The notes under the pieces are model-generated. The model was not told the origin of the DNA, did not search any database, and saw nothing but the letters and a program-made list of their open reading frames with translations. From assembly GCA_044892525.1 (NCBI GenBank), contig CM097885.1, forward strand, positions 10,480,001-10,544,000: DNA of 64,000 nucleotides, read 5' to 3'. The position numbers and the translations under genes are program-made. The stretch's first letter is position 1. Every line of letters starts with the position of its first letter. This document shows positions 23,362 through 62,887 of this stretch, piece after piece. This stretch comes from Schmidtea polychroa. Its lineage: Eukaryota.

Positions 23362-24379
23362 TCTAAAATTGAAATTAAACGTTTATTTCGTTTGATATTT
23401 CTTTTATTTTTATTGTTTTAATTTTAATATTTCAATTGAAATTTTTTTAAATAAAATAAAACTAAAGTTTCGAAAAAGTAATAGTTTTATTTGGATTTTA
23501 AAGTTAAAACATGTTTTCAGAATTTGACAGGTGGGGCTGAAAGCTGACAAAGCGGAAGGCGCCCGTTGAATATAATAAAATGTAACAACAGTTTCGTTTT
23601 ATAAATTCTCTTTTCATGTATTTCTTATACGTAAATAATTTGTTATAATTATAATTTGTTAACAATATTTGTTAAATAAACATATTTGTTAACCAGTTTT
23701 TAATAATTCAAATATTGAAGAACTATTATTACTATGGATACGATTAATTTGTAAAATAAACAACTTTAAGAGAGAAAAACAGCAACAAACATTTCAATAA
23801 AAACAAATATTAATATAATCATAGCATTAAAAGTGAAAGTTTAAAATATAGTAAATATTTGCATAAATTAAAACAATTTTATTAAGACTTACATTTGAAA
23901 TCTTTATTAGGTGTGAACATTGCAATTTTTAAATTTCATCTTGTATTATTTGTAAATTTAATAATTAATAATTAATTATCTAACCAAATCACTATAACTT
24001 CTATGTATGATGAATGATGATGAAAGCAAACAATAATTAACAGAAATAGTTTACATATACATGTATATATATATATATATATATATATATATATATATAT
24101 ATATATAAATAAATACCAAATGGCTAACATTAAATAAGAGATTAAACTATCGAAAAATATAAAAAATCTGTAGGCAAGCACGTTTCACAATTTTCAATAA
24201 TAATAAATACACACGAATGGACATTAAATAAGGGTCTTAAAATTAAAAAATTTCCAAATATTTATTCCACAACAGTAGTAGGATGTGGGCCATCCAGATC
24301 AGGAGCTCCCCGCGCCACATATACCCCCTCCCCCCCCCGGGAAAAAAAAAATTTTTTTTTTTAATTTTTTGTTTTAATT

Positions 24380-25430
24380 AATTGGCCTGGCGGGCTCACA
24401 CTTTTTTTCATCCCAAAAATTAATGTTCCCACCAACGGATTTTATTGGACTATACCTCATCTTAAAGCCCAGTCCAAGACCTTTCGAATGAGCTATAGGT
24501 ATCATATATATCTTTAATAGTTTTAATGTTATTAACAATTGATGACCACCATCTTTTCAACGTTAAATTATTATTATTTTCCAAAATATTATTAATTGGC
24601 CTGGCGGGCTCACACTTTTTTTCATCCCAAAAATTAATGTTCCCACCAACGGATTTTATTGGACGATACCTCATCTTAAAGCCCAGTCCAAGACCTTTCG
24701 ATTGATCCATAGAAGGTATCATCATCATTAATATTGACAAAGTTATTAACAATTGATGACCACCATCTTTTCAACGTTAAATTATTATTATTATTCAAAA
24801 TATTATTAATTGGCCGGGCGGGGACATACTTTTTCTCATCCCAAAAATTAATGTTCCCATTATCCGAATTTATTAATCGATAGCTTATTTTGAAGCGTAG
24901 TCTAAGACCTTTCAATTGAGCCATAGAAGGTATCATCATCATTAACATCGGCAAAGTTATTAAAGTTTTACCGAGACCATTTTTCAAGGTCATTTATTTT
25001 TCAAAATATTATTTTCAAGGTCAAGGTCAAATTTTTAATAAAAGGTCAAGGTCATTTATTATTTTCAAGGTCATTTTTTTTTTATAATTATGTGGCCGGG
25101 ATGGCCCCTACTTTTTTTCATCCCAAAAATTAATGTTCCCGCCAACAGATTTTATTAATCAAACACTTATTTTAAAGCCCAATGCAAGACCTTTCGAATG
25201 AGCTAATAAAGGTATCTTCATCATTATTATTGACAAAGTTATTAACATTTTACCAAAAATCATTTTCAAGGTCATATAATTATTAAGTGGTCTGGCGGGC
25301 CCCTACTCTTTTTCATCCCAAAAATTAATGTTCCCATTATCCGAATTTATTGGACGATACCTCATCTTAAAGCTCAGTCCAAGACCTTTCGAATGAGCCA
25401 TAGAAGGTATCATCATCATTAATATTAACA
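24380..25430. repeat. Subterminal ~214-bp degenerate tandem repeat (mirrored at ~37045-38815, 50460-51630, 61535-62780)
   Basis: Recurrent CATCCCAAAAATTAATGTTCCC...AAGACCTTTCGA...GGTATCATCATC units. The right arm of copy A has an extra 707-bp tandem duplication. Confidence 0.9.
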
Positions 25431-25437
25431 AAGAGAA

Positions 25438-59300: not shown

Positions 59301-62300
59301 GATAATTTTGAGATAGAATACCAGCAGAAGAGCGAGAAAAATTTGTAAATTAAATATAATAGGGTTGGGTGGGTCCTCTTTATCCCTTAATTAATATATA
59401 TTTACAAGCTGATCGTCGTGGTGGGCGGTTGTAATCCAACTAGTGGGAGGCCTCTGTAAATATATATTTGTGTTAGTGAAAACAATAATTAATTTGGTTA
59501 TAGTGCCAATGACGCATGTATTTTGAAATTATACGTTTCGAATGTGCTGGTAGTTGACTACCCATGCTAGGCGTAATGTTCCGTACGGAAAGCTATAATG
59601 CCCAGGTTCTTCTGACCCCACTTGGGGAAGGCACAGACGACCCTTGTGGACGCGAACAAATATCCACCGTGTCTTTCAGGCACAGATATTTGGTCACTGC
59701 TCATTAGGCCTGGCAATACTAAATGCATACACTTTGCCTTGTCCTCTCTTGTCTTGATTTTTATCGTTTAAATAGTATGTGTTAGGTTTTATTTACTAAC
59801 CATAATTAATATACCCTTGCGATATGTTGTAAGTAGTACCTTTGTGAGTAATACCCATAGGGGGAGAGAATATTTTGTCGGTTAGACTAGAAGTATATAC
59901 ACCCATGTTAAACAAGGTATGTGTATATAGAATGTATGTGTAAAATTATCGCTCCTTATTGACAACTTCCTGTAAAGGCAAACACAGAATGCTGCAAACA
60001 TAATAATACTCTACCCCATAACTTAGTATGTAAAAATTATTTAAGGTTTTTCACTAATAATAATAATAATTATAATAATAATAATAATAATAATAATAAT
60101 AATAATATTAATAATAATAAAGTTTAATGGGTTGTATATGTGTGTAAAAAAATATTTGAGGTTTTCACGAATATTGATAATAATAATGGTTTATGAGTGT
60201 TTTTATGTTTTTGACTAATATTTGCAATAATAATAATGGTTAATGGGTTGTGTGTGTGTGTAGAAAATATTTTAGGTTTTCACTAATATTGATAATAATA
60301 ATTGTTAATGGGTTGTGTGAGTGTAAATAATATTTTAGGTTTTTGACTAGTATTTGCAATAATAATAATATTGATAATAATAATTGTTAATTGGTTGTGT
60401 GTGTGTGTGTAAAAATATTTTAGGTTTTTAATATTGATAATAATAATAATAATGGTTAATGGGTTGTGTGTGTGTGTAAAAAATATTTTAGGTTTTCACT
60501 AATAATGATAATAATAATAATAATGGTTAATGGGTTGTGTATGTGTGTAGAAAATATTTTAGGTTTTTAATATTGATAATAATAATAATGGTTGAGGGGT
60601 TGTGTGTGTAAACCATATTTTAGATTTTTCATTAACAATAATAATAATAATAATAATAATAATAATAATAATAATAATAATGATAATAATAATAATAACT
60701 CCCGCGCGTGTTAATACTTTAAAAGAAAATATTGAAAATTTAAAAAATAATAATATTTATGCAAAGCATGTGCAATAATTATGTCTTTGTTAATTAAGTA
60801 AACTTTAGTGTCAAAATAAGTTTTTAAAATATTTTTAAATTTAAAATACCGCAACTTAATATATTTTTGTTCTACCCCTTCATTGATTTAAGTTGGTCAG
60901 AATTTAATAATAATTATATTATACCCTTTGAGACATGTTGAATGTGAGTAGTACACCTTTGACCATTACCCATATGAGCAATACCCATAAAGGGATAGAA
61001 TATTTTGTCGGATAGATTAAGAGTATATATGATAATAATATTCCCCGTGCGCGTAATAATAAATAATAATAATAATAATAATAATAATAATAATAATAAT
61101 AATAATAATAATAATAATAATAATAATAATAATAATAATAATAATAATAATAAAACTTAGAAACTAAAAACTTAGAAAATAATAATTATTTTAATAAATG
61201 ACCTTGAAAAATTAAATAACCTTGAAAAGTAAATGACCTTGAAAATTAAATGACCTTGAAAAATTAAATGACCTTGAAAATTAAATGACCTTGAAAAGTA
61301 AATGACCTTGAAAATTAAATGACCTTGAAAAATTAAATGACCTTGAAAATTAAATGACCTTGAAAATAAAATGACCTTGAAAATAAAAAGATTACTTAAT
61401 TAAAACAAAAAATTAAATTAAAAAAAAATGACCTTGACCTTGATGAGTCATATGACCTTGGGAATGACCTTGATGAGTCATCGTTCTAAAAATATTAGAC
61501 ATCGTTGGGTGAGTCATTGGGTGAGTCATTCTCTTTGTTAATATTAATGATGATGATACCTTCTATGGCTCATTCGAAAGGTCTTGGACTGAGCTTTAAG
61601 ATGAGGTATCGTCCAATAAATTCGGATAATGGGAACATTAATTTTTGGGATGAAAAAGAGTAGGGGCCCGCCAGACCACTTAATAATTATATGACCTTGA
61701 AAATGATTTTTGGTAAAATGTTAATAACTTTGTCAATAATAATGATGATGATACCTTCATTAGCTCATTCGAAAGGTCTTGCATTGGGCTTTAAAATGAG
61801 GTATCGTCCAATAAAATCCGTTGGTGGGAACATTAATTTTTGGGATGAGAAAAAGTATGTCATCGCCCGGCCAATTAATAATATTTTGAATAATAATAAT
61901 AATTTAACGTTGAAAAGATGGTGATCATCAATTGTTAATAACTTTGTCAATAATAATGATGATGATACCTTCTATGAATCAATCGAAAGGTCTTGCATTG
62001 GGCTTTAAAATGAGCTATCGTTGAATAATTATCGTTGTCGGGAACTCTGTACATTTAAATTTTAAAATATGACCTTGAAAAAATAAATGACTTTGAAAAA
62101 ATAAATGACCTTGAAAAAATAAATGACCTTGACCTTGACCTTGAAAATAATATTTTGAAAAATAAATGACCTTGAAAAATGGTCTCGGTAAAACTTTAAT
62201 AACGTTGCCGATGTTAATGATGATGATACCTTCTATGGCTCAATTGAAAGGTCTTAGACTACGCTTCAAAATAAGCTATCGATTAATAAATTCGGATAAT

Positions 62301-62887
62301 GGCAACATTAATTTTTGGGATGAGAAAAAGTATGTCCCCGCCCGGCCAATTAATAATATTTTGAATAATAATAATAATTTAACGTTGAAAAGATGGTGGT
62401 CATCAATTGTTAATAACTTTGTCAATATTAATGATGATGATACCTTCTATGGCTCAATTGAAAGGTCTTAGACTACGCTTCAAAATAAGCTATCGATTAA
62501 TAAATTCGGATAATGGGAACATTAAATTTTGGGATGAAAAAAAGTGTGAGCCCGCCAGGCCAATTAATAATATTTTGGAAAATAATAATAATTTAACGTT
62601 GAAAAGATGGTGGTCATCAATTGTTAATAACATTAAAACTATTAAAGATATATATGATACCTATAGCTCATTCGAAAGGTCTTGGACTGGGCTTTAAGAT
62701 GAGGTATCATCCAATAAAATCCGTTGGTGGGAACATTAATTTTTGGGATGAAAAAAAGTGTGAGCCCGCCAGGCCAATTAATTAAAACAAAAAATTAAAA
62801 AAAAAAATTTTTTTTCCCGGGGGGGGGGGGGAGGGGGTATATGTGATGCGGGGAGCTCCTGATCTGGGGAGCTCCAATCCTACTACT
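50344..62887. mobile_element. Giant palindromic non-autonomous Maverick-like element, copy B (12.5 kb)
   Basis: AGTAGTAGG...CCTACTACT termini. 6-bp TSD CGTTTC at 50338-50343 and 62888-62893. Inverted arms 50344-55801 and 56949-62887 around a 1147-bp spacer. Homologous to copy A. Confidence 0.9.

Follow-up and report, generated by a model that had tools for sequence, protein, structure and literature searches.

A 64,000-nt stretch of the Schmidtea polychroa genome (assembly GCA_044892525.1, contig CM097885.1, positions 10,480,001 to 10,544,000; the window, to which all positions refer unless stated otherwise) contains two palindromic elements without genes, given the working names E1 and E2, that have the ends and the integration footprint of Maverick/Polinton elements and whose two arms bear the marks of copying from one to the other. 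Each consists of two ~6.5-kb units joined tail to tail, and a unit is composed of the terminal inverted repeat (TIR) of a coding Maverick family (family A) and a core that does not derive from this helper. Taking the evidence together, we consider it likely that E1 and E2 are satellites that depend on a helper Maverick and that would replicate as hairpins.

E1 (24274-38916; 14,643 bp) and E2 (50344-62887; 12,544 bp) were delimited by self-comparison, which places 95.3% and 91.1% of their length in inverted arms and agrees with the sizes (14.6 and 12.5 kb) and the inverted-repeat content (~91-95%) given in the initial annotation of this DNA. Both end in AGTAGT..ACTACT, and therewith possess the repeated AG..CT end motif of Maverick/Polinton elements, and both are flanked by the perfect 6-bp target-site duplication (TSD) that had been read before: CACAAC for E1 (24268-24273 and 38917-38922) and CGTTTC for E2 (50338-50343 and 62888-62893), with a chance of ~8e-4 for each, given the base composition. 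The arms (E1: left 24274-31110, right 31805-38916; E2: left 50344-55814, right 56936-62887) show a gap-free identity of 98.4% within E1 and 97.7% within E2, and of 92-94% between the two elements. The earlier statement that PolB, integrase and capsid genes are lacking was upheld: seven helper proteins gave no tblastn match in E1 or E2 (E<1), and none of the pPolB, integrase, ATPase, protease and capsid genes of an autonomous Maverick was found in either. After removal of frames dominated by a single residue, 0 of the 39 stop-to-stop frames of at least 45 amino acids (aa) in the left half of E1 matched Pfam, which leaves room for micro-exon genes; in a gap-length test for hidden coding, the coding control behaved like the E1 core.

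TIR of the helper type is confined to the outer ~1.8 kb of each arm (E1: left 24274-26060, + strand, with 214-bp and 17/18-bp repeats and homologous to the TIR of the full-gene Mavericks L034-L035, right 36394-38916, - strand, with an internal 707-bp duplication; E2: left 50344-52133, + strand, right 60927-62887). The arms as a whole (5.5-7.1 kb) exceed the TIR range of 100-1,500 bp given in PMC10748475. The inner ~5 kb of each arm is a non-coding core without helper counterpart; in E1 (left arm 26061-31110, +; right arm 31805-36393, -) the helper lacks all of it except simple repeats and a ~90-bp motif, and a second palindromic family has a homologous core. The unpaired loop, or spacer, of E1 (31111-31804; 694 bp) is the same in most relatives, and that of E2 (55815-56935; 1,121 bp) comprises unpaired core sequence and a variant of the E1 spacer piece. 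A decayed set of helper genes was rejected as the nature of the core: 19 of 20 palindromes gave no tblastn match, and one has a PolB tail on one arm. A GC-rich core piece had no match among phage records.

The autonomous Maverick with the same termini that the initial annotation had proposed to look for does exist: full-gene family-A copies of 16.1-17.1 kb, each with its own TSD, occur elsewhere in the genome and have their first 34 bases in common with the palindromes, down to the same few variants. E1 and E2 therefore share their termini with a coding family of the same genome, as non-autonomous elements do. The family-A genes encode TBP, an A32-like ATPase, an integrase with rve and chromo domains, an adenain-type protease, a capsid protein with a predicted double jelly-roll fold (pLDDT 91; best match iridovirus capsid, E 4e-17) and a protein of 1,336-1,365 aa in which the motifs of a family-B polymerase (PolB) were read directly. 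The latter was not recognised in Pfam, PHROGs and PDB sequence searches, so that its assignment rests on the motifs. From the ends, the TSDs and the hybrids described below we infer that family A would mobilise the palindromes in trans. The ends belong to integrase-coding Mavericks, and no link with a cut-and-paste transposase was found, which answers the earlier reservation that other copies might associate with one. Of the proposal that these are satellite or defective-interfering-like genomes, the non-autonomous nature and the Maverick ends and footprint have stood, but not a simple snap-back of the helper, given the ~5 kb per arm that the helper lacks. At its two ends (24274-24310 and 38880-38916) E1 has two distinct variants of the family terminus, and the same two variants are carried by hybrid L014-L015, a sign of recombination between copies.

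A second Maverick (family B) lies beside E1 on the + strand (1-15204 of the window) and encodes TBP, ATPase, an interrupted integrase, capsid proteins, protease and PolB, with genes that are 64-74% like those of family A. It begins 1,371 bp before the window, measures 16,575 bp and is flanked by the TSD ATAGTA. Its termini (AGTAGGTAGATAG) are unlike those of E1 and E2 and match those of the second palindromic family, and it has no DNA in common with E1. The integrase frame (2255-3385) contains an in-frame stop at 2756-2758. The neighbour had been taken as an intact size reference of ~16.8 kb; its length is indeed similar, but with an interrupted integrase and other termini it is neither intact nor a terminus-matched helper, and its different termini rule it out as the helper of E1 and E2. 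It has two tandem minor-capsid-like genes (3409-4434 and 4427-5443), against one in family A.

The core is not restricted to family-A ends. The second family was recognised from a 15.1-kb palindrome with a TIR 80% like that of the neighbouring Maverick and a core that matches that of E1 at 65-85% in indel-rich blocks. Nine further family-B loci comprised six palindromes of 15.8 to more than 17 kb with the termini of the neighbour (four with perfect TSDs, one refolded inside-out) and three composites or fragments; the cores of the family-B palindromes are 64-86% like that of E1, and ~1.6-1.8 kb of 5.2 kb can be aligned across the families. An E1-like core in these palindromes implies a single core lineage under two unrelated sets of ends, and together with the lack of a helper counterpart it means that E1 and E2 are no simple snap-backs of a helper genome. 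Terminus swapping that still goes on was considered and rejected, as all four core pairs without listed family-A ends turned out to have variant family-A ends.

Each family-A TIR has one copy of the ~90-bp motif at its inner end; E1 has eight copies and E2 seven, and the E1 core adds three copies per arm to that of the TIR. In E1 it is found at 27029-27133 (+), 25846-25938, 28923-29008 and 30861-30926 (-), with mirror copies at 31989-32054, 33891-33976, 35766-35870 and 36516-36608. Four copies (81-92%) were found in family-B palindromes and none in the neighbouring family-B Maverick, a distribution that suggests that the core may have come from the family-A side. The motif was also considered as a U6-type Pol III promoter and showed no likeness, compared by eye, to the region upstream of the host U6 genes, which alternate with a tRNA-like gene in a 793-bp tandem array.

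The size of the family was estimated over the 781-Mb, AT-rich assembly with short probes (exact or one mismatch; all reversed control probes gave 0). We recovered 1,516 exact matches for the termini (a lower bound, as variant ends occur), 1,780 exact matches for a 24-mer of the core, 268 for a 22-mer of the spacer, 513 for the integrase probe and 312 for the PolB probe. Within the first 100 core matches, 56 formed 28 divergent pairs. Extrapolated loosely, there would be ~500 palindromes with ~7 Mb in total, with a firm floor of 268. Loci were then fetched from 10 terminus pairs among the 40 terminus matches listed, from 9 among the 40 spacer matches listed and from 12 among the core-probe matches. 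Among the 20 palindromes that carry the core and were read at both ends, 16 had a perfect 6-bp TSD, each a different one (the count leaves out a copy without a found left end, a fragment, a copy whose right end lies beyond the fetched sequence and a rearranged 5.3-kb copy). This bears out, for the family as a whole, that we are dealing with independent insertions and not with an artefact; the TSDs of other copies, which had been put forward as a test, thus spoke for it in most cases and failed to do so in four. Of the 38 elements with exact matches at both ends in the first 24.5 Mb of C1, 18 contained a divergent pair of core probes, 5 the probes for integrase and PolB (exact PolB matches only) and 3 those for integrase and core; 12 were of other kinds. 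Relative to 16.6 kb, the 19 copies sampled measured 76-93%, and in the census 13 of the 15 un-nested copies fell within 74-106%. Two palindromes were found to contain whole Mavericks (L090-L092 and L093-L095; one of family A, the other of a further family with a 1,459-aa PolB), one of which sits in the spacer with its own TSD.

The relation between the two arms was analysed over a 2.85-kb core stretch in 20 elements. In 18 of them the arms are each other's sisters; the arms of one element differ by 0-0.5% in 17 cases, and the nearest other copy is 1.2-2.7% away. Substitutions private to one element were found 102 times on both arms and 37 times on one; had the arms decayed independently after one ancestral fold, the reverse would be expected. 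One element has an identical private rearrangement of ~1 kb on both arms. Polishing of the assembly could inflate the likeness of arms, but such a rearrangement, along with arm differences of up to 3.8% kept elsewhere, goes beyond what polishing explains.

Fold-back is recurrent in the family-A helper itself. Among the 40 family-A PolB matches listed there were five inverted pairs, all verified as palindromes of 7.1-16.2 kb, with four distinct fold points (L023-L024, L025-L026, L027-L028, L029-L031 and L018). Two of these PolB-half palindromes have a common junction and two 1,124-aa PolB open reading frames (ORFs) each, and another has inward-pointing ORFs of 1,216 aa. Only these consist wholly of helper sequence, as snap-back defective genomes do, and E1 and E2 do not. 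Hybrids were found as well, in which the left half of the helper is joined to the core, without PolB, at three different core positions: L014-L015, L006-L007, L102-L103, L104-L105 and L106-L107 are Mavericks without polymerase that contain, besides the core, open frames for integrase, ATPase and capsid. Given the 513 integrase against 312 PolB matches, the family may split its functions among partial genomes.

The route that we propose is as follows. The protein-primed polymerase of the helper would start at the AGTAGT ends; the displaced strand would snap back into a hairpin of 6-7 kb, on which fill-in or template switching would copy one arm onto the other; and the helper integrase would insert the product, leaving the 6-bp TSD. 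The dimer form would raise the unit to 76-93% of helper length and so suit packaging, and the sizes observed fit such a constraint. Recombination with helpers would yield the polymerase-less hybrids, and one past swap of termini between helper families would account for the second set of ends.

Several observations weigh against this account. No origin was found for the core, and the elements are known from integrated copies, with no extrachromosomal, hairpin or capsid-bound form seen and no read-derived piece that spans an element from end to end. Four of the 20 palindromes have no perfect TSD (one 5/6 match, one failure and two with mirrored flanks), and two of the 20 have non-sister arms, which differ by up to 3.8%. 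Elements of 0.5, 1.1 and 5-9 kb with the family ends are also present, so that size is no strict filter; the very short ones include C1:8116622-8117698 (1,077 bp) and C1:9487684-9488229 (546 bp). One polymerase-bearing copy has seven copies of the ~90-bp motif, the gain of which is therefore not specific to satellites. Finally, three palindromes (L048-L049, L064-L065 and L116+L108-L109+L117) are bordered by 99-100% inverted copies of flanking DNA, from at least 0.7 to 2.1 kb, so that mirror copies can also originate from chromosomal fold-back or misassembly. In two of these cases the mirrored piece stops at a further terminus of Maverick type, a sign of aberrant transposition or of misassembly; one mirrored flank is host HMG-array DNA.

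Such mirrored flanks would also suit an alternative that we hold to be unlikely, namely that the palindromes are giant derivatives of the foldback type, or of the type of miniature inverted-repeat transposable elements (MITEs), moved by the integrase alone, without virus-like replication, and that their arms, once inserted, are held similar through gene conversion or cruciform repair. Homogenisation of arms within the chromosome is known from the Drosophila Galileo/FB elements and from Y-chromosome palindromes, several of our elements have fewer differences near the loop than near the ends, and the tiny elements with the same ends would fit as well; yet the arms differ to a degree that is also seen between the paired TIRs of helpers, the end variants mostly agree at both ends of an element, and the sizes cluster near the helper length. 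A plain snap-back, in which a polymerase-less variant (helper left half plus core, like L014-L015) came first and its right half was folded back once and then amplified, is in our estimate improbable. E1 does map from end to end on the right half of the polymerase-less variants, and snap-backs of the polymerase half arise repeatedly, but E1 has a 307-bp spacer piece that is missing from the variants, the three core join points are better suited to repeated recombination with existing palindromes, and the core is palindromic under family-B ends too. In an early arm tree, with badly cut arms, the single hybrid nests inside the palindrome clade. Long palindromes are a recognised assembly hazard and a few loci have perfectly mirrored flanks, but an assembly artefact from fold-back read chimeras is very hard to credit against unique flanks with 16 different TSDs, a spacer common to at least 268 loci, nested insertions with their own TSD and contigs from runs X2 and X5 (two studies) that cover 30 of 30 bins of arm and spacer.

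The helper-dependent satellite that we favour resembles several known systems in part. Foldback transposons (FB/Galileo) and MITEs combine very long, internally repetitive inverted arms with non-autonomous amplification. Such arms are present in E1 and E2, but their ends and 6-bp TSD are those of the Maverick integrase family, and neither a longer TSD nor a cut-and-paste transposase partner was found. Non-autonomous Polintons are known from Repbase. The symmetric recombinant SYREC of adenovirus 12 reportedly has a palindromic layout. It depends on a helper, as E1 and E2 probably do, and has viral ends around non-viral DNA, with protein-primed replication, but it is a single laboratory isolate (PMC2396429), whereas here a natural family is found with hundreds of germ-line copies and two kinds of termini. 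Compared with Maverick/Polinton elements of the animal adintovirus type (PMC10748475, PMC8097293, PMC8502044 and PMC6431247), E1 and E2 are alike in the (AGT)2..(ACT)2 ends, the 6-bp TSD and a length near ~17 kb, which is noted as a constraint for vertebrate Mavericks in PMC8097293, and differ in the absence of genes, the long arms, the degree of palindromy and the core of their own. The snapback subgenomes of adeno-associated virus (AAV; PMC8235507) derive from a linear DNA virus and are palindromes in which one of its ends is present twice; they have their direct parallel in the PolB-half palindromes. The AAV forms are made anew from the helper, whereas E1 and E2 are inherited as integrated lineages and have a core that is not the helper's. 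Helper-dependent adenovirus vectors likewise lack genes and retain only cis signals, and their genomes below 75% or above 105% rearrange towards wild-type size (PMC9863843), a 75-105% window that fits most of our copies; the vectors are engineered and do not integrate, and packaging of E1 and E2 is proposed by us from size.

In the literature searched, which left Repbase and the 2006 founding paper outside the comparison, no description of palindromic gene-less Mavericks was found, and a prior description is possible; text searches in the main text of PMC6431247, PMC8097293, PMC8502044, PMC10748475 and PMC11410931 (planarian genome) showed no such element. The present analysis adds the core shared under two termini, the arm-copying pattern, the hybrids and an Alu-like domain. 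Mining for Mavericks by co-located integrase and PolB, as set out in PMC8097293, misses elements like E1 and E2, and gene-based surveys would thereby overlook a share that by rough extrapolation reaches up to ~0.9% of the assembly. How animal Mavericks replicate (hairpin or panhandle intermediate, capsid stage) is a long-standing question that has been approached by inference; hundreds of genome-length palindromes with copy-specific changes on both arms would constitute a fossil record of the replication intermediate, and these changes provide direct markers that can be sought in sequencing reads and in particles. The core, shared by two sets of ends that are not related, would represent a parasite of an endogenous virus that has had its own history, and the palindromes could give rise to rearrangements and to double-stranded RNA.

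The Alu-like domain is a look-alike of the Alu 5' domain of 7SL, the RNA of the signal recognition particle (SRP), and is located at 27487-27532 (-) in E1, where it is closed by a local 12-13-bp stem, and at 53298-53343 (-) in E2, with mirror copies at 35367-35412 (+) and 59408-59453 (+), respectively. The Rfam match (RF00017) is weak (29.6 bits against a cut-off of 70), yet 34 of 44 bases at 27489-27532 (-) are identical to the 5' end of the host 7SL gene and all 13 helix pairs are kept, three of them via double changes, in a covariation test on three sequences whose structure came from the Rfam alignment and folding and therefore leans towards the fold. The helix score is reached by 13 of 500 shuffles, and the predicted structure has two hairpins with the conserved UGUA motif. 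Different from SRP RNA, only the 5' domain is present, and the local stem, which is AT-rich (folding z -1.9), replaces the 7SL 3' strand. Over 90 bases, 32 of 35 arm copies are identical, both variants preserve the helix, and the 200-bp bin that holds the domain is the least variable of 21 (0.7%). No match was found in 92.5 kb of family-B cores and helpers with filters off. If transcribed in family A as a mimic of the host 7SL Alu domain, it would be part of a wider scenario that we put forward tentatively and hold to be doubtful: a protein-free Polintovirus satellite lineage, with a conserved core as a genome-length hairpin, that has moved between unrelated helpers through an exchange of termini, uses helper capsids for its packaging and breeds polymerase-less hybrids. 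The host 7SL genes form a 593-bp tandem array. Run X15, which bears another organism label, contains pieces of this region with 2-4 differences, for which a relative, contamination and transfer are all possible.

Three further features of the window lie outside the elements. A 240-aa ORF at 22138-22860 (+), 1.4 kb upstream of E1, resembles an amiloride-sensitive sodium channel over the N-terminal part of the latter (Pfam ASC, E 5e-14), and E1 may reside in an intron of a sodium-channel-like host gene. A frame at 44728-45042 (-), without Pfam match, has what we take to be a GIY-YIG-like motif, and a fragment of a hAT dimerisation domain is found at 16648-16989 (-).

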